DNA of 64,000 nucleotides from an uncultured Candidatus Saccharibacteria bacterium (GTDB lineage Bacteria; Patescibacteriota; Minisyncoccia; UBA6257; 2-01-FULL-56-20), in assembly GCA_964387675.1 (NCBI GenBank), contig CAYLWL010000001.1:74819-138818 (forward strand), written 5' to 3'. A program made the translations under genes and the position numbers. The notes under the pieces are model-generated. The model did no database searches. It was not told the origin of the DNA and saw nothing but the letters and a program-made list of their open reading frames with translations. Positions 2,708 to 54,893 of this stretch are shown here, piece by piece. Numbering within the stretch: position 1 is the stretch's first letter; each line of letters opens with the position of its first letter.

Positions 2708-4357
2708 ATGACAAAGATAAGAAAAATCTTTTTTGCGCTTACTGGGCGGGAGCGGGTGGTATTTTTATCCGCGGCGGCTTTGGCGATTGTGAGCGGCATA
2801 ATCCTTACCGGCTTGGGCTTCGCCCAAAACACGAGAGTCGTCCCGGCCTCGGGCGGAGAATACACGGAGGGCTTCCTCGAACAGCCGATCTATATAAACC
2901 CCGTCATCGCCTCTCTTGTTGTCGACAAAAGCATCGTGAAGCTTGTCTTTGAGAACATCCGCGGCATCGCCGAGAAAATAGAAACGTCGCCCGACGGCAG
3001 AATCTGGAATATCAGAATAAAAGAAAACTTGGAGTGGCACGACGGCGAAAGATTGACCACCGACGACGTCGTATTCACCATCCAAAAAATCCAGGACCCG
3101 GAAAGCTCGTCGCCGCTCGAAAAAATATGGCGCGGAGTGTCGGTGAAAAGGGTGAGTGGCCTTGAACTCCAATTGAGCTTGGTGAACGCGGACCCCTTCT
3201 TTCGGGAAACGCTCAACACTCTTTACGTCCTGCCGAAGCATCTCTTCTCGGAAATACCTCCGGCAAACTGGCGGCTTTCCGATTACAACCTGAAACCTGT
3301 CGGCGCCGGCCCCTACAAGTTTTCCTCTTACGAGAAGAAGCCCGACGGATTCATCGGCCTCTACCGGCTGGAGCAGTGGAACGACTACCCGGGAGAAAAA
3401 CCGCTGATCGGCAACTTCACCCTCAAGTTCTTCTCCGATCTTCAGGGTGTCATTGGAGATTTCAATTCCGGCCAGATCGACGGCATAGCCGGGCTTGAAC
3501 CCGATGCCGTGAGCCAAATAAAAAGACCTCACGAAACCTTCTCTTTTTATCTTCCGAGCTACTACGCGGTCTTTTTGAACCAAAGCAAGAGCATACCGCT
3601 CAAGGACTTGTCGGTGAGAAGGGCTCTTAGCGCGTCGGTTGGCAGGGCAGGCCTCGTCGAGAGCGCCCTCGGCGGACGAGGCAAACCGGCCCTTGGGCCG
3701 ATTCCCGCGGAGACGCCGTATTTTGACGAAAGCATATCCTCGTCAACGGAATCCATCGAATCGCTTGGAGACGCGCTCGACAGAGCCGGCTGGAAAATGA
3801 ACGACCAGGGGGTCCGGGAAAAAACGATAAAAAATACGAAGCTCCCGCTCGAACTGAATCTTACCGTCCCGCAGATAACATTCCTTACGAAAACCGCTGA
3901 AGTCCTTGCAAAAACATGGCAGCCGCTTGGTTTCAAAATCAACATCAACACGCCGGGGCTCGAAGAGATCGCAAAGAACACCATCACGAACCGGGACTAC
4001 GAAATGCTCGTCTTCGGCAATGTCCTCAATAAAAATCTCGACCTTTTTTCTTTCTGGCATTCTTCGGGCAGATTCAATCCCGGCCTGAATCTTGCGCTCT
4101 ACAACAATAAAAAGGCGGATGCCTTGATCGAGTCCATTCGGCTCGACTCAAACGAAGAAAGCCGCGCGAAGAAGCTCCGCGACCTCCAGACAATAATCAC
4201 GAGCGACTATCCGGCGGTATTCCTTTATTCGCCGGAATACACCTATATCACGACCAAAAACCTTCAGGGAGTTTCGGCGGGTCTCGTTGCCGACCCGTCC
4301 GACCGTTTTGTTGACGCGAAACAGTGGTATGTGAAAACGGCGCGAGTTCTAAAATAG
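2708..4357 (+). CDS. ABC transporter substrate-binding protein, family 5 (peptide/nickel type)
   Basis: 549 aa with an N-terminal TM/signal and a length and motif pattern typical of SBP_bac_5. Confidence 0.5.
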   Translation: MTKIRKIFFALTGRERVVFLSAAALAIVSGIILTGLGFAQNTRVVPASGGEYTEGFLEQPIYINPVIASLVVDKSIVKLVFENIRGIAEKIETSPDGRIWNIRIKENLEWHDGERLTTDDVVFTIQKIQDPESSSPLEKIWRGVSVKRVSGLELQLSLVNADPFFRETLNTLYVLPKHLFSEIPPANWRLSDYNLKPVGAGPYKFSSYEKKPDGFIGLYRLEQWNDYPGEKPLIGNFTLKFFSDLQGVIGDFNSGQIDGIAGLEPDAVSQIKRPHETFSFYLPSYYAVFLNQSKSIPLKDLSVRRALSASVGRAGLVESALGGRGKPALGPIPAETPYFDESISSSTESIESLGDALDRAGWKMNDQGVREKTIKNTKLPLELNLTVPQITFLTKTAEVLAKTWQPLGFKININTPGLEEIAKNTITNRDYEMLVFGNVLNKNLDLFSFWHSSGRFNPGLNLALYNNKKADALIESIRLDSNEESRAKKLRDLQTIITSDYPAVFLYSPEYTYITTKNLQGVSAGLVADPSDRFVDAKQWYVKTARVLK

Positions 4358-9050: not shown

Positions 9051-10043
9051 TTAAATCAGTTCTCCTTTGCTCTTGATCCCCAAATGTTCGTAGGCGGCCG
9101 GGAGCGCGATCCTGCCGGACGGAGATCTCTGGAGAAATCCCAAGGTCATAAGATACGGCTCGTAAATATCCTCAATCACCCCCCTGTCTTCGGAAAGCGC
9201 CGCGGAGATGGTGTTGATTCCGACCGGCCCCCCGTTGAACTTTTGTATGATGACTTCGAGCAATTTCCTGTCCTGCGGCTCAAGGCCGAGAGAGTCGATT
9301 TCCAGCATCTCCAGGGTCTTTTTGGCAACCTGCTCGTCAATACTCTTTTTCCCTTGCACCTCGGCATAGTCGCGAGCGCGCTTCATAAGCCGGTTCGCGA
9401 CCCGCGGCGTTCCCCGGGATGCCTTCGCAAGAACGGCCACCGAAGACGGATCAACGTTCATATTTAAAATGTTCGCCGACCGGCCGATGATTTTTTTGAT
9501 ATCTTCGAGGTCGTAGTACCCGAGCCGGAACGTGGCGCCGAATCTTGACCGCAGGGGCTGAGACAGCAAATTTTCCCTCGTCGTCGCGGCGATAAGCGTA
9601 AAAGCCGGCAAATCCAAGCTGATGGTTCTCGCGCTCGGACCTTTGCCGACGACGAGATGAAGTTTTCTCGACTCCATCGCGGGGTAAAGAACTTCTTCGA
9701 TCAAAGGATTTATTCTGTGGGCCTCGTCAATAAAGAGCACCTCTCCGGGATCGAGGTTCGTGAGAATAGCAGCCAAATCGCCGGTCTTCTCGAGAGCCGG
9801 GCCAGAGGTGGTCTTCACGCGCGAGCCCAATTCTTTCGAGACGATATAGGCAAGCGTGGTTTTCCCCAAGCCGGCAGGACCGGAAAAAAGCATATGATCC
9901 GCCGACTCTTTTCTTTTTTTCGCCGCATCAATCAAGACCCGAAGGTTGTTCTTGACCTTCGCTTGACCGACGTATTCATCCCATCGGATCGGCCGCAATG
10001 TTTGATCGATGCTTAGGTCCTCTTTGGCAATTGTTTGTTTCAT
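9051..10043 (-). CDS. ruvB: Holliday junction branch migration ATPase RuvB
   Basis: Walker A 'GPAGLGKTTLA' and RuvB N/C domains. Confidence 0.9.
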   Translation of the reverse strand: MKQTIAKEDLSIDQTLRPIRWDEYVGQAKVKNNLRVLIDAAKKRKESADHMLFSGPAGLGKTTLAYIVSKELGSRVKTTSGPALEKTGDLAAILTNLDPGEVLFIDEAHRINPLIEEVLYPAMESRKLHLVVGKGPSARTISLDLPAFTLIAATTRENLLSQPLRSRFGATFRLGYYDLEDIKKIIGRSANILNMNVDPSSVAVLAKASRGTPRVANRLMKRARDYAEVQGKKSIDEQVAKKTLEMLEIDSLGLEPQDRKLLEVIIQKFNGGPVGINTISAALSEDRGVIEDIYEPYLMTLGFLQRSPSGRIALPAAYEHLGIKSKGELI

Positions 10044-10288: not shown

Positions 10289-11965
10289 CTACCATTCGAT
10301 TTGTCCGGTTATATTTTCAATCTCCTCGAAGCTTGTTTCTCCTCGCAGAACTTTGAGCACGCCGTCTTCCTGCATCGTCACCATACCTCTTCGTTCGGCG
10401 AGTTTTGTGAGCGAAACTTCCGACGGCTCTTTGAGGACCACCTCTTCGAAATCCGGCCCTCCTTCCAAAAATTCGAAAACGCCGATCCGACCTTTATAAC
10501 CGAAATCGTTGCACCGGTTACAACTGCCCGCTTCGTACACGGTGAACTTTTGATATTTGCTCTTGTCTACGCGCGGCGGAAGTTTTTCCAGGAATTTTTT
10601 TATTTTGGATTTTAGCTCTGGGGTTTGGTTTACTGTTTTTTTGCAGTCGGGGCATAACTTCCGCACTAATCTTTGGGCAATAATAAGATTCAGGGCCGGA
10701 CCGATGCTCACCGGCTTCACGCCCAAATTGATCAGCCGAGGGACAGCGCCGACGGCGTCGTTCGTGTGGAGCGTGGAAAGCACCAAGTGGCCGGTGAGGG
10801 CCGATTGCATGGCGATATCGGCCGTCTCCAAATCCCTCACCTCCCCCACTAAAATAACGTCGGGGTCCTGGCGCACGATGGCTCGGAGCCCCTTCGCGAA
10901 CGTATAGCCGGCTTCCGTGTCAACCTGGGTTTGCTCGATTCCCAGAAGCCGATACTCGATAGGGTCTTCAAGGGTGATGATTTTCACCTTCGGATCGTTC
11001 AGTTCTCCGAGAAAAGCGTAGAGGGTGGTGGTTTTTCCCGATCCGGTTGGACCGGTATTCAAAATCAATCCGTTCGGCTTTGAGAGCTCTTTCTCGACGA
11101 TCGCCATGTCGTCTTCTCGGATCCCCAAAACCGCGATGCCAATGCTTGCCACGTCGGGATCAAGAATCCTCATTACGATATTCTCGCCGAATTCCGAAGG
11201 AATAACCGAAACCCTGATTTCGATTTCTTTGTTCCCGAAGCCGATCGTAAATCTGCCGTCTTGCGCCTCATCTCGCACGTTAATCTTCATTCCCGCGAGC
11301 AGTTTGATTCGGGAAACAAGCGCGTCGTAATTCTTGGGCGGCAGTTCGTTGAAAACGTCGTGGAGCAGGCCATCGACCCTTAATCGGACTTTCGCCTTTT
11401 TTTCTTCCGCCTCGAAATGAATATCCGATGCCTTGAGGGCGAACGCGGACGCGAGCACTCTTTCTATCAGATCGACTGGCGTGGTTTTGAAAAAGTCCAA
11501 ACCCGCGACTTCCTGTTTTGCGGCGGCAAGATTCACGATTCTCTTGACGAGCTCCTCCAACCTTTTTTGGGCGATACTCACTTTTCCCGTGATGTCGCCG
11601 GTGGATTCTTTTATGAACTTGTACTGATGCCAAACCTCTTGCAGTCCGGAAAGCGACGCTATGAAAATCTTGATGTCGTATTTTTTATCATGTAAATCGT
11701 CGATGGCTTTTTTGGTTGCGGGGAGCCGCGGGTCGGCTACGGCGAGAGCGATCTTTTTCGCATTCACCTGGATGCTTGCCGCCAGGGCTTTTTTGGCGTC
11801 ATCTTCTTTCAAAAACTTCAGAGCGTCGCTCGAAACCGGCACTTTGGAAAAATCCGCATACGGAAGGCCGAGTTCGCGCGCCAAACGCTCGGCGGCGCGT
11901 TCTTCGCCCTCCCTTCGGAGCAGATCCAGCTTCTGGATGAGGTTTGTTTGTTTTGGAGGAACCAT
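10289..11965 (-). CDS. pilB: type IV pilus / type II secretion assembly ATPase (PilB/GspE family)
   Basis: T2SSE_N-like N-terminus, Walker A 'GPTGSGKTTT', Asp/His boxes and a C-terminal tetracysteine motif. Its ATG is embedded in the family-2 element arm 'TTCTAACGGGATG'. Confidence 0.8.
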   Translation of the reverse strand: MVPPKQTNLIQKLDLLRREGEERAAERLARELGLPYADFSKVPVSSDALKFLKEDDAKKALAASIQVNAKKIALAVADPRLPATKKAIDDLHDKKYDIKIFIASLSGLQEVWHQYKFIKESTGDITGKVSIAQKRLEELVKRIVNLAAAKQEVAGLDFFKTTPVDLIERVLASAFALKASDIHFEAEEKKAKVRLRVDGLLHDVFNELPPKNYDALVSRIKLLAGMKINVRDEAQDGRFTIGFGNKEIEIRVSVIPSEFGENIVMRILDPDVASIGIAVLGIREDDMAIVEKELSKPNGLILNTGPTGSGKTTTLYAFLGELNDPKVKIITLEDPIEYRLLGIEQTQVDTEAGYTFAKGLRAIVRQDPDVILVGEVRDLETADIAMQSALTGHLVLSTLHTNDAVGAVPRLINLGVKPVSIGPALNLIIAQRLVRKLCPDCKKTVNQTPELKSKIKKFLEKLPPRVDKSKYQKFTVYEAGSCNRCNDFGYKGRIGVFEFLEGGPDFEEVVLKEPSEVSLTKLAERRGMVTMQEDGVLKVLRGETSFEEIENITGQIEW

Positions 11966-43461: not shown

Positions 43462-44706
43462 ATGATCAATATCAAGGAATTAAGCAAAGCGCTCAAACAG
43501 GTTGCCGAAGAAAAAGGCCTTAAGCCGGAAGAGGTGCTGGAAGCCATCGAGTCCTCGATAGCTGCTGCTTACAAAAAAGAATACGCCGAGCGCGGAGCGG
43601 TGGTGAAGTGCAAGCTCGACATGAAAACCGGAGAGTTGAAGTTTTGGCAGGTTAAAACCGTCGTCGATGAAACAACCGTCCGTTTTGTCGAGGAGAAAAC
43701 GGAAGAAGAGATCCAAAAAGAGGAACAGGAGGGGAAAAAAGAAGAGCCGGCGCCTGTCGTAGATTCGGAAGAACTCAAGCTTCCTCGTTATAATTCAGAG
43801 CGGCATATCTTGTTTGAAGAAGCGAAGAAAATAAAGTCCGACACCGAGCTGGGAGAAGAATTGATTTTTCCTCTTGAAACCCATGACGAGTTTGGAAGAA
43901 TCGCCGCGCAAACCGCGAAGCAGGTCGTGTTGCAAAAGCTAAGGGAATCAGAAAGGGATTCGATTTTGAAAGAGTGGCATGATAAAGAAGGACAAATTGT
44001 GAGCGGCGTTGTCCAGAGGTTCGAGCGGGGGCATGTGTATGTTGATCTCGTACGGACGATCGGAGTGATGTTCGCGAACGAATCTATCCCGGGCGAACAC
44101 TACCGGGCAGGCGAGCGTTTGCGATTCCTTGTTCTTGCCGTTCAAGAGGACTCGCGGCTTCCGGGCATCGTCCTTTCTCGTTCGCATCCGAGATTCGTGG
44201 TGGAGCTGTTTCGGATGGAGGTGCCGGAGCTTGCCGAGGGTGCCGTGGAAATAAAGGCGATTGCGAGAGAGCCGGGAAACCGCACAAAGCTTGCCGTTGT
44301 TTCTCATGTCGACGGAGTCGATCCCGTGGGAGCTCTCGTTGGCCAGCGCGGGACGAGAGTGATGGCGGTTAATAATGAGTTGGGCAATGAAAAGATAGAT
44401 ATTGCCGAGTGGTCCGAAGATCCGGAAAAGTTTATTGGGAACGCCCTTTCTCCCGCGAAAGTGCGGTCGGTTGAAGTATTGCCTCGACGCGAGGCGAGAG
44501 TGTATGTGCCCGAAGACCAATTGAGCTTGGCTATCGGCAAAGGAGGACAAAATGTTCGGCTTGCGGCAAAACTCACCGGATGGAAGATAGACGTTCGTTC
44601 GCAGACGCGGCCGAGCGAAGTGCAAGAAGGAGGAGTTGCCGCCGCCCTTGGAGAAGAAGAGCCGGCAAAAGAAAGTTTTGAAGAGAAGGGAGACGTGGCA
44701 ATGTGA
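43462..44706 (+). CDS. nusA: transcription termination/antitermination factor NusA
   Basis: NusA N-terminal domain, S1 and two KH domains; 414 aa. Confidence 0.85.
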   Translation: MINIKELSKALKQVAEEKGLKPEEVLEAIESSIAAAYKKEYAERGAVVKCKLDMKTGELKFWQVKTVVDETTVRFVEEKTEEEIQKEEQEGKKEEPAPVVDSEELKLPRYNSERHILFEEAKKIKSDTELGEELIFPLETHDEFGRIAAQTAKQVVLQKLRESERDSILKEWHDKEGQIVSGVVQRFERGHVYVDLVRTIGVMFANESIPGEHYRAGERLRFLVLAVQEDSRLPGIVLSRSHPRFVVELFRMEVPELAEGAVEIKAIAREPGNRTKLAVVSHVDGVDPVGALVGQRGTRVMAVNNELGNEKIDIAEWSEDPEKFIGNALSPAKVRSVEVLPRREARVYVPEDQLSLAIGKGGQNVRLAAKLTGWKIDVRSQTRPSEVQEGGVAAALGEEEPAKESFEEKGDVAM

Positions 44707-46804: not shown

Positions 46805-47044
46805 ATGTCGGTGGTAAGCTACGACTATAAGTTGTCATACAGAAATATGCCCGAGCTCACCGTAACAAAAACAAAAGACTACCTTATCTTGAAAATCCCG
46901 TTGCGTGCGGCGCAACGCGGGAAATTTGCTCTTTCTCCGAAAACGGAAAGAATTATTGCCGAGGGGCTGAAGGCGTATTCGCAAGGCCGCTTTGCGGGTC
47001 CTTTTGACGCCAAAGAGGCGATCGCCTATCTTCGTAGGCGATGA
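46805..47044 (+). CDS. antitoxin partner (paralog 2)
   Basis: 79 aa with a 4-nt overlap with the toxin. The 'GPFDAKEAIAYL' motif is shared with 39628..39843. Confidence 0.5.
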   Translation: MSVVSYDYKLSYRNMPELTVTKTKDYLILKIPLRAAQRGKFALSPKTERIIAEGLKAYSQGRFAGPFDAKEAIAYLRRR

Positions 47045-47286
47045 AAGTTGTTTTTACCGAGCCGCTTCTCCGCTGCCTTAAGAAGTTGCCGCAAGAGACA
47101 AAGAAAAAGTTTGAGAAACAAATTAAGTTTCTTTTGAAAGACATTCGCCACCCGTCGCTTCGTGCTAAGAAATATGATGAAGAGAGAGATATGTGGCAAG
47201 CGAGGGTCGACGACTTTTATCGGTTTTATTTTACGATTGAGACCAGTGCGTATATCATTTTGGCGGTAACTAAGCACCCAAAGTAA
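47041..47286 (+). CDS. RelE/ParE-superfamily toxin, paralog 2
   Basis: '[33 protein letters not shown]...KHPK'. Confidence 0.6.
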
Positions 47287-47290
47287 ACCC

Positions 47291-47887
47291 ATGGAAAAAC
47301 TCAATCAATACCTAATCCCAACAGTTATCGAAAAATCGCAGTATGGCGAGCGGGCGTATGATATTTACTCGCGTTTGCTCAAAGAGCGGATTATTTTCCT
47401 TGGCGGGCCGATACACGACGCCGTGGCGAACACGGTGATCGCCCAACTCTTGTTTTTGGAGCACGAAGATCCGAAGAAAGACATCAGGATCTATTTGAAC
47501 ACGCCGGGGGGATCGGTGACGGCCGGAATGGCGATTTATGACACGATGCAGTATGTAAAGCCGGATGTTTCCACTATTTGCGTGGGCATCGCGGCTTCGA
47601 TGGGCGCGTTTCTTTTGGCCTCCGGCAAAAAGGGGAAGAGATTTGCTTTGCCGAACTCCGAAATCCTTCTGCACCAGGTGATGGGCGGCGCCGAGGGGCA
47701 GGCGGTGGAGGTGGAGATCGCGGCGAAGCAGATTTTGCGCACGAAAGATAAACTCAATAAGCTTTTGGCGAGGCACACGGGGCAGTCGCTCGCAAAAGTG
47801 GAAAAGGACACAGATCGCGACTTTTGGTTGAGCGCGGATGAGGCGAAGGCGTACGGATTAGTAGACGAGATCATTAAAAATAAATAA
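47291..47887 (+). CDS. clpP: ATP-dependent Clp protease proteolytic subunit
   Basis: '[14 protein letters not shown]' active-site Ser region and 'HQ' His motif. Confidence 0.9.
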
Positions 47888-47896
47888 TCTCAAAAA

Positions 47897-47939
47897 ACCT
47901 TTCCATTATAACATAATATTATGTTATAATGGAAAGGTT
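47897..47939. terminator. perfect ~21-bp palindrome after clpP
   Basis: 'ACCTTTCCATTATAACATAAT/ATTATGTTATAATGGAAAGGT'. Confidence 0.5.
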
Positions 47940-48091
47940 GCGGGGCAGATGATTATGGCCGCCACGAGGCGTGTTCGATGAGACTCACCGCAGGCGGCTT
48001 TTTAATTCGCGACAGAACTTTTCGATAGTTGTTTTCTTGCTCGTGCTGTGCCATGGCGCAGAACAAGAATCCGACCCACCGACCCTGTTGG

Positions 48092-48127
48092 GCCGCACGT
48101 AACTGTGCGGCCCCATTTTTTTATCAT
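48092..48127 (+). promoter_or_regulatory. intrinsic terminator/attenuator hairpin in the tyrS 5' leader (T-box-like candidate)
   Basis: 'GGGCCGCACgtaactGTGCGGCCC' followed by 'CATTTTTTT', 20 nt upstream of the tyrS ATG. It is preceded by ~150 nt containing further hairpins. Confidence 0.5.
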
Positions 48128-48146
48128 CGTGCTAGAATAATTTGTA

Positions 48147-49337
48147 ATGACTTCAAAAGAGGAGAAAATACAAAATCTTTTGACTCGCAACGTCGAGGAA
48201 GTTATTGACCGCGCCCACCTGGAGAAAGAACTAAAGAGCGGCAAAAAACTTCGAGTGAAGCTGGGGATCGACCCTACCGGCGGGAATCTGCACATAGGCC
48301 ACGCAGTAACGTATTGGAAGCTGAAGGAGTTTCAGGCCCTTGGCCACAAACTCGTCATTATCATCGGCGACTTTACGGCACAAATTGGCGACCCTTCGGA
48401 TAAACTTGAAAAACGGCCGTTCTTATCTAAAGCGCAAGTCGAAAAAAACTTGAAGAATTACTTGCCCCAAATAGGGAAAATAGTTGACATCAGAAAAGCA
48501 GAAGTTCATCGTAACAGCGAGTGGCTTGCGGGTCTTAACTTCCGCGAAACGGCAGAACTTGCGGAATCTTTCAGCTTTCAACAAATAGTAAAACGACGGA
48601 ATTTTCAAGAAAGGATAGCAAGAGACGAGGATATCACTTTGCGCGAGCTTATGTATCCGCTGATGCAGGGATATGATTCCGTTGCCGTGAAAGCCGACGT
48701 GGAGCTTGGCGGAAGCGATCAACTTTTCAATCTTACGGCGGGAAGGCGCGTACAAAAACATTACGGCCAAAAGCCGCAGGATATCATGACGATGAAGATG
48801 TTGGTCGGTCTTGACGGACGGAAGATGTCCAAGAGCTGGGGCAACGTGATCAATATCGCGGACTCGGCCGATGAACAATTCGGGAAGGTGATGTCGATGC
48901 ACGACGACTACATAATGAATTACCTCGAGTTGGCCACTGATTTGTCTATGGACGAGATCAAGAAACTCGGCGCCGAACTTAAAAAGGGGACTAATCCGAA
49001 AAAAATAAAAGAAAAGTTGGCGTTCGAGATTGTCCGGCGTTACCACGGCGAAAAATCCGCGCGTGATGCCCGCGATACTTTTGGCAAGCTTTTCTCGAAA
49101 AAAGAAATCCCGGCGGATGTTCCCGCGCTCAAACTTCCCTCGAAACATATTTCCATAAGAGAGGTTGTTTTATCATCCGGCGTCGCGAAAAGCAAAAGCG
49201 AGGCGCGGCGGCTCATCGAGCAGGGCGCCGTTGAGGTGAACGGCTCCGTGATAAACAATCCGGCAGAAACGATTCTCTTCAAAGGCGGAGAGATTTTGAA
49301 AGTCGGCAAGAGGAAGTTTTTCCGAGTGAAAGTTTAA
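48147..49337 (+). CDS. tyrS: tyrosine--tRNA ligase (with C-terminal S4 domain)
   Basis: 'HIGH' region 'GNLHIGHAV', 'KMSKS', and 'GGSDQ'. Confidence 0.85.
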   Translation: MTSKEEKIQNLLTRNVEEVIDRAHLEKELKSGKKLRVKLGIDPTGGNLHIGHAVTYWKLKEFQALGHKLVIIIGDFTAQIGDPSDKLEKRPFLSKAQVEKNLKNYLPQIGKIVDIRKAEVHRNSEWLAGLNFRETAELAESFSFQQIVKRRNFQERIARDEDITLRELMYPLMQGYDSVAVKADVELGGSDQLFNLTAGRRVQKHYGQKPQDIMTMKMLVGLDGRKMSKSWGNVINIADSADEQFGKVMSMHDDYIMNYLELATDLSMDEIKKLGAELKKGTNPKKIKEKLAFEIVRRYHGEKSARDARDTFGKLFSKKEIPADVPALKLPSKHISIREVVLSSGVAKSKSEARRLIEQGAVEVNGSVINNPAETILFKGGEILKVGKRKFFRVKV

Positions 49338-49726
49338 TTCCCTATTTCGGGAATGTCACGGTGTCCAGTTTGTTTATCGTCGCATATCTGGCATTTTTGC
49401 GAGGAAAATTTTGCTTAATGGATAAAATGTTTCAAGGAGCGAGCCTTTCTGTCTTTGAGAAGCTCTCGGACCCAGCCGCAGCTTGGTCTCCGACCGCAGT
49501 CGGAGTGCGGCTGGGGAGAGGCAGGCGATATTTAGCCGCTGGAGCTAAATAGACGCCGGTTCTCAAAGATAGAAAGGCGAGCGAAAGTTATCCACAGCCC
49601 CACGTTTGACGACCAGCGTCACGGAGTTAAGATTAAATCAGCTCACGGACAACTTCATACTTAATTTTTACGCGCAGCATACATGCCGCGCAAACGTTTC
49701 GGTCGCCTCAGGCGACCACCTACACG

Positions 49727-49762
49727 ACGGCCTTCCCCTGGAAGGCCGCCTCTTTTTATTTT
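49727..49762 (+). terminator. rho-independent terminator on plus strand, ~390 nt after tyrS
   Basis: 'GGCCTTCCCCTGGAAGGCC' followed by 'GCCTCTTTTTATTTT'. It bounds a structured noncoding region. Confidence 0.6.
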
Positions 49763-49821
49763 CACTTCATCATTCATCCTCGCCGCAAGTTGTGAGGTGC
49801 TCTGGAAAGTGAAAATAAAAA

Positions 49822-49861
49822 AGCGCCGCGTCCGGATGGGTCCGGGCGGCGCGCGAAGACG
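49822..49861 (-). terminator. rho-independent terminator for gene 49880..50482
   Basis: The minus strand reads 'GCGCCGCCCGGACCCATCCGGACGCGGCGC' followed by 'TTTTTTATTTT'. Confidence 0.65.
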
Positions 49862-49879
49862 GATCGGTCTTGGGTCCTC

Positions 49880-50482
49880 CTACGAGCGACCGTCGTCGGA
49901 GCTGTCGACGACCTCCAATCCCGCCGATCTAGGATGCTCCGTCTGGTACTTCTTGACGGCCTCCTTGATCCGGTCGATGAGTCCGGGCTCGACATCCGCG
50001 GCGATCTGTTCCTGGACCACGGGATCGTCGAGATCCTGGTCGCGCAAGAGGAGAACCGCGGCGGCGATTTTCTGCTCGTCGGGCATCGCCGCGATCCTGT
50101 TGCGAATGGCCTCGGCTCCCGCGGCGCTCACGTCGTGGCTGGAGACGAGGTTTTCGATGCTCCTCTCGAGAGCGACTTGGCTCGCGAAGCCGTACGAACC
50201 GCTGAAGTCGTTGATCACCGCCTCTTCTTTGGTCGTTGGCAGGCCGCTCTCGCCGAGGAGCTGATGAGTGAGCCGAGCGCGGTCCGCCTCGTTGATCGCG
50301 CCCTCGTGGACGAGCGCGCCGAGTACTTCTCTTCCTTCCTCGTTTGTGGGCCGTGTTTTTCTGGCGCCGTCTATGACGTACCAACGATACGTCACTCGTG
50401 CCAGAGCTAGTCGCAGATTATCATGGGTTCCGTGATAAGTCAATTTTTTTTGGAGTATCTTTACGACTTCACTCGAACTCAT
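49880..50482 (-). CDS. hypothetical protein (GC-rich island)
   Basis: 200 aa with no known domain. Local GC is about 60%, well above the surroundings. Terminators lie on both sides. Confidence 0.45.
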   Translation of the reverse strand: MSSSEVVKILQKKLTYHGTHDNLRLALARVTYRWYVIDGARKTRPTNEEGREVLGALVHEGAINEADRARLTHQLLGESGLPTTKEEAVINDFSGSYGFASQVALERSIENLVSSHDVSAAGAEAIRNRIAAMPDEQKIAAAVLLLRDQDLDDPVVQEQIAADVEPGLIDRIKEAVKKYQTEHPRSAGLEVVDSSDDGRS

Positions 50483-52427: not shown

Positions 52428-53042
52428 TTGCTAGAAATAATTGAACAAATGGCTCGCAAGGCAATCCTATTCTTCATTTTCGTGCTTGTGGTCGGCGGCG
52501 GCTACGCCTTCTATCATTTTTGGTCTTCCCCGGGCGCCATCTCTCCCGATTTCAACGAATCGCGGCTTCAGGGCGCGCTCATTGCGCAGAATATCGTTAC
52601 GCTTTCCAACCAGTCCGCGCTTGATTTGTCGAAGATCGGCGAGCTCGACAGAAGCGGAAAATTCACCGAAGCCCTTAATTTGACGGCCGACGCGGTGCGT
52701 CAAAGCCAAGAAATCAGAGATCAGGCGGTTGCGTTATCGAGCGAAACGGAACGGATGACAAAGTCGCTCTCGAGCATCGATTCGTTCGAGGCCCGTCAGG
52801 CGGTTTTGGAATCGATCGCGAACCGGCTGGCCCTGATCAGTCGGCTGATCAACTACAGCGGCTACTTGGGCCAACTGCTCGATGTTCTGCACAATCGTTT
52901 CAACGGGAAGTTTTCAAAGGGCCAAGCCGCGCAAATTTCCAACTTGGTTGAATCCATAAACGGAGAAGTGAGGGCGATCAATAACTTCAACCAACAAGCG
53001 AGCCAGGCGATGGATCGGTTTGATAAGACAGTGAATAGGTAG
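52428..53042 (+). CDS. membrane-anchored coiled-coil hypothetical protein
   Basis: N-terminal TM then Gln/Ser-rich helical region. Confidence 0.4.
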   Translation: MLEIIEQMARKAILFFIFVLVVGGGYAFYHFWSSPGAISPDFNESRLQGALIAQNIVTLSNQSALDLSKIGELDRSGKFTEALNLTADAVRQSQEIRDQAVALSSETERMTKSLSSIDSFEARQAVLESIANRLALISRLINYSGYLGQLLDVLHNRFNGKFSKGQAAQISNLVESINGEVRAINNFNQQASQAMDRFDKTVNR

Positions 53043-53296
53043 ATGGTTCCACCGCATTGCTCCTCGGAAACAAAACAGAGAAGACGACCATCGCAAGTCA
53101 TTTGGCTACCGCTCGCGTCCCCAGCGAGGACGCTCGCTGGCGCTTCTTCCTCGCTCTCCTTCGACACGGCTCAGGAACCATGCCCGCTCGGTCGAAGAGC
53201 CGCGCCGAATGACTTGCGACGGTCGTCTCCGGCGCGAGAGGAACCTCGGGGCAACGCGGGAGGGCTTTGTCTTGGTGGTTGAGGGGTTGGTAGAAG

Positions 53297-53371
53297 GGGC
53301 GCATAGCTCAATGGCAGAGCACCGAGCTTATACCTCGGCGGTTCTAGGTTCGAATCCTAGTGCGCCCACCA
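53297..53371 (+). tRNA. tRNA-Ile (anticodon UAU)
   Basis: Acceptor GGGCGCA/TGCGCCC, D-arm GCTCAATGGCAGAGC, anticodon stem CCGAG/CTCGG with loop CTTATAC, T-arm CTAGGTTCGAATCCTAG, CCA encoded. Confidence 0.8.
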
Positions 53372-54893
53372 GTATTAAACTTTCAGAAATTTTGCCAATG
53401 GATTTTGCCGCGCGAAGCGCGGAAAGGTATGGAAACACTGGCTCGCCGCGCACGGCGCGGCTCGCCAAGCGCAGGTTCGAGCCAAAGATTTCTTTGGCGG
53501 CAACCTTTTTCTCTTGAAGGTTGCTATCCCTTGCGATTTTGACGAGGTTTGAAGCGACTTTTATCCAGTTTTGGAAGGGTTCGAGCCAATCATTCTGCTT
53601 TTGTTCAATCCGCGTCATTTTCTCGTCCAGCGACTTCTTTTCAGACAACAAGATAGCTTTCTGTTCTCGGTATATTTCTCGCTCAATATCCTGTTCCAAA
53701 TAGCCATCCAGAAGTCGCTGGAGCTTCGTTTGTATCGCGCGGATTTTGATTTGGCTTTCTTGAACAAAAGCAGAAACGGATTGGGCGGATACCGCTTTGT
53801 CTTTTTCTGCCATTGCTAAAAGTTTTTCCGCCCAATCCGCGCGCAAAGAAAATTTTTGAAGCAGAGAGGAAATTTGTTTGTCCAGTTCCTCTTGGCGAAT
53901 ACAGGGTTCGAGACACTTTATTGATTTGTTTTTCTTGGTGCAATGATAGTAAATATAATCGTGGACATTTCCATTTTTCTGCTTCTTAACCCTGTATTCG
54001 CCAGTTATGGACATTCCACAAGTGCCGCACTTCAGTAGCCCGCACAAATGTTGCGGCTCATACTTTGTTTTGTGGTGCGGCCTTCCTCTCTGCTTCAAAA
54101 CTTCCTGAACTTTATCAAAAATTTTCTTTGCGACGATTGGCTCATACTTTCCTTCGTGGAGTTCACCGCTGTATTTGAATAGTCCGGTGTAAAAAGGATT
54201 TGAGAGGATAAAAGTCGCCCTCGTCTTGTGGATTCTCTTTCCACCGCGGGATAGTATCCCGCGGTGCGCCAAAAAGTCCGAAATGTCCTCTAACCGTGAA
54301 TTGCCCTCGGCGTAAAGTTCAAAAGCCCCGCGAATAACTTTTGCTTTCTTCCTATCCACTACCACTGTTTTTGTGCGGCTGTCGTTGATATAGCCGATGG
54401 GCGCGGGGCCGGGATATTCTCCGCGCTTTACTTTTTGGCGCAAACCGCGCTTTGTGTTTTCGGAAAGAGAATCCACATAGTATTTGCTTTGCCCAAATAC
54501 AATGTTCAACATAAATTTTCCTTGCGGCGTATTTTCAAACCACAGCGTTGGAAATTTCAAGCTCGCAAGTTTTTCAGTGTCCAAAAGATAAATGATACGC
54601 CCGCCGTCCACAGAATTGCGCGCCAATCTGTCCGCGTGCCAAGCCAAAATTCCGTTGGCCTCGCCTCGTTCTATCTTGTCCAGCATCTCGTTAAATATCG
54701 GCCTACCCGGAATTTTGGCTGATTGTTTTTCAATAAGGACATCAACGATATTCAAATTTTCTTGTTTTGCAAAGGCGCGCAATTCCGCGATCTGGTCTTC
54801 AATCGAGCGCACTTGTTTATCCTCCACATCGGTGGACTTGCGGGCGTAAAGGAAAAATTTATGTTGTTCCATATTCATAGTTTTATTGGGCAA
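53328..54893 (-). CDS. large serine recombinase (resolvase N-domain plus recombinase domain plus zinc ribbon)
   Basis: 'FLYARKSTDVEDKQVRSIEDQ' catalytic Ser region and 'CGLLKCGTCG' zinc motif. The 3' end reads through IR-A into the tRNA, so the true stop is uncertain. Confidence 0.8.
   Translation of the reverse strand: MPNKTMNMEQHKFFLYARKSTDVEDKQVRSIEDQIAELRAFAKQENLNIVDVLIEKQSAKIPGRPIFNEMLDKIERGEANGILAWHADRLARNSVDGGRIIYLLDTEKLASLKFPTLWFENTPQGKFMLNIVFGQSKYYVDSLSENTKRGLRQKVKRGEYPGPAPIGYINDSRTKTVVVDRKKAKVIRGAFELYAEGNSRLEDISDFLAHRGILSRGGKRIHKTRATFILSNPFYTGLFKYSGELHEGKYEPIVAKKIFDKVQEVLKQRGRPHHKTKYEPQHLCGLLKCGTCGMSITGEYRVKKQKNGNVHDYIYYHCTKKNKSIKCLEPCIRQEELDKQISSLLQKFSLRADWAEKLLAMAEKDKAVSAQSVSAFVQESQIKIRAIQTKLQRLLDGYLEQDIEREIYREQKAILLSEKKSLDEKMTRIEQKQNDWLEPFQNWIKVASNLVKIARDSNLQEKKVAAKEIFGSNLRLASRAVRGEPVFPYLSALRAAKSIGKISESLILVGALGFEPRTAEV
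53368..53480. repeat. IR-A (113 bp), left inverted repeat flanking the recombinase; starts within the tRNA-Ile 3' end
   Basis: Near-perfect reverse complement of 54921-55033. Confidence 0.8.

Follow-up and report, generated by a model that had tools for sequence, protein, structure and literature searches.

What lies between the end of tyrS and the convergent gene at 49880-50482, where some 420 nt (49338-49762) fold strongly and seem to encode nothing? An earlier note on this DNA had proposed one structured RNA, of a size that would suit RNase P RNA or tmRNA and possibly novel, that ends in an intrinsic terminator. We addressed the question in the window, meaning the whole 64-kb stretch of DNA that was analysed, and compared its locus (W) with other Patescibacteria loci (L-numbers). 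The tyrS gene and the region behind it comprise the following features.

48147-49337, plus strand: tyrS, tyrosyl-tRNA synthetase (open reading frame; Pfam tRNA-synt_1b at 1.2e-70, S4, and SYY_C-terminal).
49338-49436, plus strand: unconserved spacer with small hairpins, missing at orthologous positions.
49437-49586, plus strand: three-way-junction (3WJ) element, copy W-1 (inverted repeats, MFE and centroid structures, covariance models).
49588-49597, plus strand: TTATCCACAG box, 8 nt upstream of the -35 hexamer.
49606-49633, plus strand: predicted sigma-70-type promoter, TTGACG, 16 nt, TAAGAT (promoter scan).
About 49640-49760, plus strand: predicted small transcription unit of ~120 nt, a candidate sRNA (promoter, terminator, fold z = -4.64).

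The reading we prefer, at a probability of roughly 45%, is that the tyrS 3' region is a composite, in which an ERIC/REP-like cis element in the 3' untranslated region is followed by an independently promoted sRNA that shares the tyrS terminator.

The lack of a convincing open reading frame, claimed before, held up. The only sizeable frames inside 49338-49762 are a 63-aa GTG ORF (49361-49552), which begins inside the spacer, and a 44-aa antisense ORF, and longer ORFs starting inside the region (49606-49812 and 49683-50264) continue through the terminator. Because the 63-aa ORF has no Pfam match and the L171 and L163 regions homologous to this one contain no conserved ORF, a coding reading was rejected. 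Known RNA families were also excluded. Rfam 15 gave no match to RNase P RNA (type A or B), tmRNA, 6S, or SRP RNA, either at gathering thresholds over the 64-kb window or at E ≤ 10 over 47850-49950, and ARAGORN reported two tRNAs only and no tmRNA in the 64 kb, which agrees with the earlier failure to see RNase P or tmRNA motifs. The best Rfam matches in the region were chance-level miRNA and leader models far under their thresholds, and 12 homologous loci yielded only tRNAs at gathering. Of the two findings that the earlier note had said would together refute it, the lack of an Rfam match is thus observed.

Several further identities were considered and rejected. A T-box leader had no Rfam match; the element is placed behind tyrS rather than ahead of it and adjoins unrelated genes as well, and the one trait that recalls a T-box is a 7-nt bulge with UGGU. 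The motifs UUGGU and GGUUC recall the D- and T-loop motifs of a tRNA-like or Y-RNA-like fold; here, however, the UUGGU sits in an internal bulge of a three-way junction, GGUUC is not conserved (L062 has GGUAC), and Rfam gave no match. CRISPR/tracrRNA, retron, and guide RNA readings were dropped, since there are no arrays and no reverse transcriptase, nuclease, or cas gene was identified beside any copy of the element.

The idea that 49338-49762 is one RNA of ~420 nt, be it of the RNase P/tmRNA/6S/SRP class or a single novel long sRNA, is largely refuted, and we regard it as very improbable. Its size, its strong predicted structure, and the terminator at its 3' end would suit that idea, and any read-through from tyrS would make the whole stretch one physical RNA as a 3' untranslated region. 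Besides the missing family matches, however, the first ~100 nt are unconserved, the modules behind them are separable and occur apart in other genomes, and a conserved canonical promoter sits inside the interval. The suggestion of a different or novel RNA survives in one respect, in that the region holds conserved covarying elements without an Rfam 15 match, but these do not make up one ~420-nt sRNA.

The spacer carries small hairpins, such as TTCCC...GGGAA at 49338-49353, and neither nhmmer nor blastn matched it outside the same species; the distance from the tyrS stop to the element is ~15 to 20 nt in L171 and L163, as against the ~100 nt of unconserved spacer in W. The gene order comM-like, UPF0102, nusA, H+-PPase, clpP, tyrS is kept between W and L413, so the position downstream of tyrS is orthologous. 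A scan for plus strand terminators within 47800-49800 found only those at 48090 and 49728, with no intrinsic terminator from the tyrS start to 49728. Because tyrS thus has no terminator of its own, its transcripts are predicted to read through the three-way-junction element at 49437-49586.

The nested hairpins described earlier, CCCAGCCGCA/TGCGGCTGGG around CTCCGAC-cgca-GTCGGAG, are real and constitute arm P2 of the element (49463-49520). This arm has a CUCUC/GAGAG base, a 10-bp stem (49471-49480/49506-49515), the 5' bulge GCUUGGU (49481-49487), and an apex hairpin (49488-49505). Arm P3 (49524-49557) has a stem at 49529-49536/49544-49551 and the loop CGCUGGA (49537-49543). A closing stem, P1, which the earlier note had not listed, joins the nested hairpins into the three-way junction. 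It pairs 49443-49461 with 49560-49578 over 19 bp (95% complementary), and GAGCGA flanks it on both sides. The strong structure claimed before is borne out by a whole-region MFE of -169.7 kcal/mol, compared with -127.5 ± 5.8 kcal/mol for 100 dinucleotide shuffles, none of which was as good (z = -7.29). The minus strand scores almost equally (z = -6.89), as palindromic stems would lead one to expect. W, L171, and L163 each fold independently into the same three-way junction.

The element is a member of a family. A covariance model built from the W-1 copy alone (R1) matched L171 at 90 bits, L163 at 79 bits, and L062 at 70 bits, and the subsequent model R2 collected nine members in ~1.3 Mb of Patescibacteria DNA: W-1, L171, L163 (L163a), L163b, L062, L098, L100, L169, and the weakly matching W-2, which is listed here.

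53080-53228, minus strand: W-2, a probable, highly diverged second copy (model R2, 22.5 bits).

The W-2 match has E = 0.0014 to 0.02 depending on the amount of sequence searched, and the plus strand there reaches only 13.8 bits. This stretch has a 23-bp closing stem, the strands GCUCUUCGA, GCAUGGUUC, and GAGAGCGAGG, a P3-like hairpin, and a fold z of -4.60. Upstream of it, at a distance of 99 nt and in the same orientation, is a serine recombinase gene (53328-54893, minus strand). The match is weak, and W-2 is a probable member of the family. Only the covariance model found it, as blastn within the 64-kb window returned no second copy. Likewise, 160 tyrS loci searched with nhmmer and blastn yielded no more than a marginal match in L003, and because sequence-only searches were nearly empty, homologues were located through synteny and by reading the sequences. 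Rfam 15 has no family that matches the element at gathering or at E ≤ 10. As a control, 865 kb of viral contigs, preselected for two conserved sequence motifs of the element, were run against model R2 and had no match at E ≤ 1. A viral origin was rejected: two pattern scans of viral contigs gave random matches among those listed (the second pattern, GAGNGCAG, has no match in the window itself), and regex and model R2 combined gave nothing real.

Conservation and covariation in related genomes, which the earlier note had named as a check, turned out positive. The stems differ completely between genomes yet remain paired, while the junction sequences are conserved, namely the strands AGCUCUCGGA, GAGAGGCAG, and ACGCCGG, the bulge GCUUGGU, the loop CGCUGGA, and the flanking GAGCGA. 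In alignment A6 (four sequences), pairing holds in 94.7% of cells and compensatory change is seen at 42 of the 55 pairs, with P2 and its apex 100% paired and every pair there covarying; shuffles reach 65.5% (0 of 500 as high as observed) and slid controls ~43% (39 to 47%). Compensatory change therefore exceeds the controls, as would be expected of a structure under selection, in a set of four sequences (nine with the weak members) aligned by a model of the proposed structure, a fit that biases these statistics upward. Among 399 scored cells, 91% are Watson-Crick, with 12 G-U against 8 A-C oppositions. A first manual count of wobble pairs had favored the plus strand, an assignment we withdrew because the full tally does not discriminate: with G-U barely above A-C, the pairing does not identify the acting strand, and a DNA-level palindrome, or folding in either orientation, fits as well as RNA.

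All nine copies are intergenic, and eight of them lie 0 to 100 nt from a gene end; the L169 copy has its nearest ORF ~300 nt away, with the 3' end of a tRNA gene at 7 nt. Six are in sense with the adjacent gene and three antisense (L062, L163b, and L098). In W, L171, and L163, the element occupies the same syntenic site although the TyrS proteins are only 68 to 71% identical. The L062 copy belongs to a locus annotated as Peregrinibacteria, whose TyrS is 48% identical to that of W. The element belongs to a dispersed, structure-conserved palindromic family at gene 3' ends in Patescibacteria, previously uncatalogued.

These properties bring up a known kind of repeat. Inverted repeats, intergenic sites, either orientation, and deletion variants are textbook MITE/ERIC features, and MITE, ERIC, and REP sequences form long stem-loops at gene 3' ends that are co-transcribed and can alter mRNA stability (PMC3184786). 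Our family shares with ERIC (IRU), REP/BIME, BOX, and Correia elements a length of 100 to 150 bp, long terminal inverted repeats that close a core, strictly intergenic sites that are typically at gene 3' ends and in either orientation, size variants by internal deletion, and predicted stable RNA stem-loops. Terminal inverted repeats around a short core without a transposase, as in a MITE, are present in that P1 occurs in nine of nine copies, at 15 to 28 bp. Unlike those families, however, the copies are not near-identical, since stems differ and covary and only the junction strands are conserved; clear variable target-site duplications are missing, the apparent copy number is low (~9 in the 1.3 Mb sampled), a three-way junction stands in place of a simple hairpin at the core, and there is no sequence similarity to ERIC, REP, BOX, or Correia families. 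Near-identical copies with conserved repeat ends within a genome, as MITEs would have, were not found: W-1 and W-2, like L163a and L163b, have no common stem sequence, and blastn over the 64 kb was negative.

One may also ask whether the element works as RNA at all. It could be a selfish or palindromic element at the DNA level, either a MITE-like relic or a hairpin recognised as single-stranded DNA, whose complementarity reflects terminal inverted repeats or the needs of a DNA hairpin; we consider this unlikely. The long terminal inverted repeats around a core, the always intergenic placement in either orientation, the perfect 6-bp direct repeat GAGCGA around W-1, the high Watson-Crick share with G-U about equal to A-C, and the inverted pair of copies that flanks tyrS in L163 all speak for it. 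So do the internal deletion variants, namely L163b, the short forms L100 and L169, and L001 (GCA_016181795.1), where TyrS and the flanking DNA are identical to those of W and a 90-bp deletion has removed the 5' half of the element; if this deletion is real rather than an error of the assembly, the element may be dispensable. On the other hand, the inverted repeats are unconserved between copies and the junctions are conserved, the reverse of what recognition by a transposase predicts, and no transposase adjoins any copy. Decay of dead copies would ruin complementarity, and the compensated pairs changed on both sides are still paired. The same syntenic site is held in W, L171, and L163 in spite of their TyrS divergence. 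The flanks elsewhere read AAGCGA/GAGCGA, GAACGA/GAGCGA, or GAGTGA/GAATGA, with none at some copies, so that GAGCGA-like hexamers at most loci look like part of the element and not like duplications of random targets. A 12-nt repeat, CGAGTGAAAGTT at the tyrS end resembling CGAGCGAAAGTT after the element, was also rejected as a target-site duplication, since copies at other loci are likewise followed by GAGCGA.

Another possibility, an autonomous functional RNA class such as a self-cleaving ribozyme or a ligand-, tRNA-end-, or protein-binding RNA, appears somewhat less likely still. Covarying helices surround the invariant AGCUCUCGGA, GCUUGGU, GAGAGGCAG, CGCUGGA, and ACGCCGG, these motifs are kept in lineages as distant as that of L062 (Peregrinibacteria), and copies are dispersed in either orientation, as twister and hammerhead ribozymes are. 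The ACCA 3' end of tRNA might pair with the 7-nt bulge, whose last letters are UGGU, in the manner of a T-box bulge, which we offer here as a lead only. However, L100 and L169 have neither the GCUUGGU bulge nor the CGCUGGA loop, so these motifs are not essential to the family; moreover, ribozymes and riboswitches do not typically have a closing stem as long as 15 to 28 bp, the Rfam models of either kind gave no match even when E ≤ 10 was allowed, the antisense copies have no evident promoter or terminator around them, and G-U usage is low.

In the composite reading that we prefer, the element would be a cis-acting RNA structure that serves as a stable barrier or as a processing site. Its long duplex could be a substrate of the RNase III type and its junction a likely protein-binding site, so that the element would determine where the upstream mRNA ends and how stable it is, and would insulate it from the next unit. 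The ERIC/REP-like placement, intergenic and at gene 3' ends in either orientation with a stable stem-loop, is consistent with such a role, but the three antisense copies are not readily accommodated, and the pairing equally fits a DNA-level palindrome.

RNase III processing hairpins between cistrons are known as the R1.1-type signals of phage T7 and as the processing stems of rRNA operons. Like these, the element puts a duplex of 17 bp or more, almost perfectly paired, between two units, and its predicted fold would give the upstream one a protective hairpin at its 3' end; the T7 R1.1-type and rRNA signals are simple hairpins with internal loops, whereas the element is a junction with conserved strands.

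Directly behind the element stands the box. Positions 49588-49596 match the DnaA-box consensus TTATCCACA exactly and are its only exact copy in the 64-kb window. The spacing from the box to the -35 hexamer is fixed at 7 to 8 nt in L003, L084, L163, L166, L169, L170, and L171, and the box of L004 is degenerate (TATCAACC). Across 1.24 Mb of Patescibacteria loci, where the box is enriched, a -35/-10-like pattern follows 16 of the 20 distinct TTATCCACAG copies, compared with 17% for permuted 9-mers. The promoter is followed by the start region TAAATCAG in W, and the -35, -10, and start region are kept in eight other loci, of which seven have an intact box and L004 is looser. L171 has TTGACA, a 15- to 16-nt spacer, and TATAAT, and L084 has TTGACC and then TATAAT. 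These hexamers, their spacing, and their conservation are those of a sigma-70 promoter, which we predict here.

Judged from its sequence, DnaA would be the obvious candidate to read the box, although a motif that so often stands ahead of promoters would be in keeping with any transcription factor. DnaA boxes serve as promoter-proximal regulatory sites at the dnaA and nrd promoters. The W box resembles them in its exact TTATCCACA match directly upstream of the -35 hexamer; unlike them, the motif is extended by a conserved G, is held 7 to 8 nt from the -35 hexamer in eight tyrS-linked loci, and recurs at many unrelated Patescibacteria promoters. A replication origin, suspected from GC skew at ~42 to 43 kb, was rejected, as the gene at 43462 is nusA and not dnaA and there is no DnaA-box cluster.

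The transcript predicted from this promoter would begin with an unpaired, U-rich part with a UUCAU motif, continue through hairpins at 49672-49691 (apex GCAUACAUGC) and 49701-49717 and the single-stranded CCACCUACACGAC, and stop at 49728-49748 with its U-run. The terminator noticed earlier there is confirmed: CGGCCTTCC-CCT-GGAAGGCCG, then CCTCTTTTTA, with 9 bp of which seven are G-C, as is typical of an intrinsic terminator. An equivalent terminator is found in all homologous loci; the form GGCCTTCC-N3-GGAAGGCC is common to W, L163, and L003, and the apex GCAUACAU to W, L171, and L163. The unit body is poorly conserved, which weighs against the sRNA part of our reading, and a conserved structure for it was discarded after RNAalifold recovered the terminator alone, without compensatory pairs. 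No conserved ORF with a ribosome-binding site occurs in the unit, where the ATG ORF at 49683 runs past the terminator.

Comparison across loci separates the modules. After tyrS in L163/L165 and L171, the order is as in W, with element, box, promoter, small unit, and terminator. The element is lacking in L003, L084, L166, L169, and L170, which have box, promoter, unit, and terminator after tyrS, and in L004, where promoter, unit, and terminator go with the degenerate box. Conversely, L062, L098, L169, and L163b carry the element elsewhere, without box or small unit. In L100, downstream of ruvC, the element, GAGCGA, the box, and a promoter that would drive a gene for a 51-aa acidic protein stand in line, without a small unit.

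The gene that follows the terminator bears on what the unit might do. A co-oriented gene (212 to 234 aa where complete; the L003 copy runs off the contig end) begins ~70 to 110 nt past the terminator, with a strong GGAGGTGG ribosome-binding site, in L003, L163, L166, L169, and L170. This arrangement, together with the fast evolution of the unit body, would suit a leader or attenuator whose target gene has been lost from the W genome, or else a micro-peptide gene; both seem improbable to us, although a leader or attenuator role may hold in these five loci. The next gene in W is convergent, so the small unit has no co-oriented gene downstream, and the next feature in L084 and L171 is a tRNA gene on the opposite strand. 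In addition, L166, L169, and L170 have a separate conserved promoter-like block containing TATAAC between the terminator and the co-oriented gene, and the missing conserved ORF argues against a micro-peptide.

Under the preferred composite reading, the TTATCCACAG box at a fixed distance from a sigma-70 promoter would give rise to a hairpin-rich RNA of ~120 nt that stops at the terminator also serving tyrS, the architecture of a small RNA embedded in a 3' untranslated region. Its expression would be governed by the protein that reads the box, and it may be a trans-acting regulatory RNA; that it pairs with targets as an sRNA is a guess. Among enterobacterial sRNAs, DapZ and MicL are embedded in 3' untranslated regions, have their own promoter, and share the mRNA terminator. 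The W unit is like them in a promoter at or after the upstream coding end, a predicted transcript of ~100 to 120 nt, and a shared terminator with none in between. It differs in the DnaA-box-like element upstream of its promoter, and we know of no Hfq-type context in Patescibacteria.

A bolder reading, which we hold to be rather unlikely, would make the three-way junction a new functional RNA class specific to Patescibacteria, either a ribozyme-like motif that cleaves itself or directs processing or a dedicated binder of proteins or tRNA ends, with its invariant junction, bulge, and loop nucleotides as the active or recognition core. It would punctuate transcripts again and again at the gene ends of these tiny genomes, and it would be physically coupled in at least four loci of four genomes to the TTATCCACAG promoter module. 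If it were true, this coupling would link the replication initiator to the expression of a small RNA or of a small acidic protein.

If the element were merely a decaying palindromic repeat, the result would be ordinary, yet its annotation would still prevent mislabelling as RNase P RNA or tmRNA. A large part of bacterial diversity belongs to the Patescibacteria (CPR), whose noncoding RNAs, promoters, and RNA processing are almost undescribed; in the literature searched, we found no description of such elements. The candidate small RNA gene keeps its position by tyrS across genomes whose TyrS proteins are only 60 to 70% identical, and the promoter-upstream motif, identical to the DnaA box and strongly associated with promoters in the sampled loci, may mark a regulon. 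A covarying element family outside Rfam could show how these reduced genomes terminate, process, or insulate their transcripts.

The interval 3' of tyrS (49338-49762) comprises two modules, a three-way-junction (3WJ) element with helices P1, P2 and P3, and a box with a sigma-70-type promoter and a predicted small transcription unit.

48147-49337, plus strand: tyrS, 396 aa (Pfam tRNA-synt_1b, 1.2e-70)
49437-49586: 3WJ element (copy W-1)
49588-49597: box
49606-49633: promoter, also detected by promoter scan
about 49640-49760: predicted RNA (fold z = -4.6)
49880-50482, minus strand: convergent 200-aa ORF

The 542 bases between tyrS and the convergent ORF hold no credible gene. The only sizeable ORFs wholly within 49338-49762 are a 63-aa GTG ORF (49361-49552), which gave no Pfam match, and a 44-aa antisense ORF; longer ORFs starting there continue past the terminator. 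The earlier note's statement that no convincing ORF is present was upheld, and its nested hairpins (49471-49480/49506-49515 around 49488-49505) and intrinsic terminator (49728-49748, then a T-run) were also confirmed. It had overlooked a 19-bp stem (49443-49461/49560-49578) that closes the nested hairpins and a third hairpin (49529-49551) into a three-way junction. The interval as a whole has a folding energy of -169.7 kcal/mol versus -127.5 +/- 5.8 in shuffles (z = -7.3); for the reverse strand, z is -6.9.

Rfam 15 at gathering thresholds returned only two tRNAs in the 64-kb window, and at E<=10 only chance-level miRNA and leader matches over 47850-49950; homologous loci gave tRNAs only, and no Rfam family matched either module. 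ARAGORN found no tmRNA, and no tandem arrays were found. These Rfam and ARAGORN negatives exclude RNase P RNA, tmRNA, 6S and SRP RNA, the classes listed for checking in the earlier note, within reach of covariance models, and the single ~420-nt ncRNA imagined there is highly improbable.

GCA_016181795.1 (L001) and a Logan assembly (L002) each encode a TyrS protein identical to the window's, and the next-nearest TyrS proteins, from Patescibacteria/CPR MAGs, share only 60-68% identity. The gene order comM-like, UPF0102, nusA, H+-PPase, clpP, tyrS is common to the window and loci L413/L163. Because sequence searches with a 433-nt query found nothing but a marginal match in L003, homologues of the modules were identified by direct reading of the sequence 3' of tyrS in the nearest loci. 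L001 lacks 90 bp at 4286/4287 (window 49434-49523), a stretch that takes in P1's 5' arm and the whole of P2, and the L002 contig ends inside the P2 apex hairpin; this reflects either genuine variation in the population or an artefact of assembly at the palindrome. Upstream, tyrS is apparently leaderless (48133-48149), with a TAGAAT -10 hexamer 8 nt 5' of the ATG and no Shine-Dalgarno, a start arrangement also seen in L163. The clpP-tyrS spacer (47888-48146), which has no Rfam match, carries a perfect 20-bp palindrome (47896-47938) and two more terminator-like hairpins (~47960-48003 and 48090-48113, the latter with a T-run), and may contain another small transcription unit. Two overlapping small genes of 79 and 81 aa (46805-47286, plus strand) between the H+-PPase gene and clpP are absent from syntenic L413; the 81-aa gene weakly matches ParE_toxin (E = 1.7e-4, below the Pfam cutoff), and the pair may be a toxin-antitoxin insertion.

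The compared loci show the anatomy and conservation of the interval. A homologue of 49437-49586 lies between the tyrS stop and the box in L163/L165 and L171, and the copies of the window (W), L171 and L163 each fold independently into one common architecture. Their stems are wholly different in sequence, yet complementary, as in the P1 arms.

W: GCCTTTCTGTCTTTGAGAA/TTCTCAAAGATAGAAAGGC
L163: GGATTTTTCCCTAGGAA/TTCCGAGGGAAAGATCC
L171: GCCACCTGTTTTTGAGAA/TTCTCAAAAATAGATGGC

P2 and P3 behave in the same way. Conserved, by comparison, are the junction strands GAAGCUCUCGGA, GAGAGGCAG and ACGCCGG, the 5' bulge GCUUGGU, the P3 loop CGCUGGA and the flanking GAGCGA. Pairing extends to 94.7% of cells in a four-sequence alignment (A6), with compensatory change at 42 of 55 pairs, so the check on conservation and covariation in relatives suggested at the outset was positive for this element; 0/500 shuffles reached the observed pairing, and slid controls gave 39-47%.

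R1, a covariance model derived solely from W-1, matched four further copies.

L171 1687-1826, plus strand: 90 bits, after tyrS
L163 3709-3846, plus strand: 79 bits, after tyrS
L062 4351-4501, minus strand: 70 bits, Peregrinibacteria MAG, between pth and rplU
L163 2298-2404, minus strand (L163b): 45 bits, deletion variant, 3 nt past the clpP stop

The model R2 added copies in L169 (beside a tRNA gene), L100 and L098 (abutting the tyrS stop, antisense), and weakly matched a very diverged probable copy in the window.

53080-53228, minus strand: W-2, 22.5 bits, fold z = -4.6

As sampled, the family amounts to only nine copies, of which four are strong; in viral contigs (865 kb, preselected for two conserved element motifs) R2 had no match at E<=1. 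In L163/L413, tyrS is flanked by two oppositely oriented copies (9798-9904, minus; 11209-11346, plus), the upstream one being a 107-nt deletion form whose GCUUGGU bulge passes straight into a P3-like hairpin. W-2 lies between an ORF (52428-53042, plus) and tRNA-Ile, in sense with a serine recombinase gene and 99 nt downstream of that gene. This tRNA-Ile (53297-53371, plus) has by ARAGORN the anticodon TAT, uncommon in bacteria, and overlaps the 3' end of the 521-aa large serine recombinase gene (53328-54893, minus; Pfam Resolvase, Recombinase, Zn_ribbon_recom), an overlap that could be the boundary of an integrated element. Separately, L084 (~3880-4070), L171 (~1995-2068), L172 (~1875-2050) and L085 (~3740-3920) carry partial tRNA 3' halves, then a conserved ~190-nt insert beside complete minus-strand tRNA genes; these are possible examples of the tRNA genes with group I introns that were recently reported from Patescibacteria (PMC13011429).

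Within the 3WJ element, G-U pairs (12) are about as frequent as A-C oppositions (8) and 91% of pairs are Watson-Crick, which fits an either-orientation or DNA structure as well as RNA. The element resembles MITE, ERIC, REP and BOX elements (PMC3184786) in its terminal inverted repeats enclosing a core, its intergenic position at gene 3' ends in both orientations, its deletion variants (L163b, the short L100 and L169 forms, the L001 deletion) and the GAGCGA direct repeat on both sides of W-1. A palindromic or mobile element at the DNA level nevertheless seems unlikely to us. Several features speak against a transposon, whether active or decaying: the stems differ between copies even within one genome while the core is conserved, complementarity is kept through compensatory change, no transposase was found beside any copy, and W, L171 and L163 share a single syntenic site. 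The flanking hexamers are moreover alike at most loci and so look like part of the element, where GC pairs set between tandem G-A pairs could form from them. A new class of autonomous functional RNA is somewhat more doubtful still.

The box-promoter-unit-terminator arrangement recurs 3' of tyrS in eight other loci (L003, L084, L163/L165, L166, L169, L170, L171, L004), seven of them with an intact box; L004 is a looser match with a degenerate box (TATCAACC). The order is (T/A)TATCCACA(G/A), 7-8 nt, a TTGACN-like -35, about 15-17 nt, a TAnnAT -10, a TAAATCAG-like start region, a hairpin-bearing 100-150 nt and an intrinsic terminator. The box sequence TTATCCACA, which is the textbook DnaA-box consensus and which DnaA may bind, has a single exact copy in the window and 38 occurrences versus about 10-14 expected in 1.24 Mb of Patescibacteria loci; a -35/-10-like pattern follows 16/20 distinct TTATCCACAG copies versus 17% for permuted 9-mers. 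This enrichment and promoter proximity make it a promoter-associated motif in the phylum. TTATCCACAG, the consensus plus G, is about 3-fold enriched in L003-L172 and usually lies 7-25 nt upstream of a -35/-10-like promoter (for example in L010, L015, L092, L100-L102, L109, L119 and L153), frequently that of a small acidic protein gene between ruvC and tyrS. After ruvC in L100, the 3WJ copy leads into GAGCGAC, TTTTATCCACAG and a promoter, just as it does in the window, so the element-box-promoter arrangement recurs in a different genomic context; this promoter precedes, and is predicted to drive, a 51-aa acidic protein gene. The hairpin-rich leader between them is ~140 nt (3895-4040, minus) and is much shorter at the orthologous L010 promoter.

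The body of the small unit evolves fast, RNAalifold retaining the terminator alone. The hairpin apex GCAUACAU is common to W, L171 and L163, and the terminator GGCCTTCC-N3-GGAAGGCC to W, L163 and L003; the 5' part contains UUCAU motifs, and ahead of the terminator lies a single strand rich in C and U. No conserved ORF was found in the unit. Nothing co-oriented lies 3' of it in the window, L084 and L171, and the co-oriented gene found there in five other loci has a promoter-like block of its own; a leader or micro-peptide role appears quite improbable. Since the terminator scan found none between tyrS and the small unit, the unit's terminator must serve tyrS too. In layout, the predicted unit corresponds to a small RNA that is embedded in a 3' UTR and has a promoter of its own. 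TTTTTATTTTCACTT/AAGTGAAAATAAAAA (49753-49767/49807-49821) form a perfect inverted repeat of 15 nt that connects the terminator U-tail with the A-tract in the terminator (~49826-49860) of the convergent gene.

Intergenic structured palindromic elements and 3'-UTR small RNAs are both known as kinds, and in the literature searched neither such elements nor the box were found described for Patescibacteria; new here are the 3WJ family, the three-way junction at its core and the coupling of this element to a DnaA-box promoter module. Our main reading, held tentatively at a probability of about 0.45, combines tyrS read-through, a cis-acting 3WJ module and a separately promoted, box-regulated small RNA. 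tyrS transcripts would pass through the element and end at 49757; its long duplex would be cleaved as an RNase III-type substrate, and its junction is a likely protein-binding site. As a cis-acting structural module, it would determine where the upstream message ends, or how stable it is, and would separate that message from the next unit, an independently promoted, box-regulated small RNA that may act on targets.
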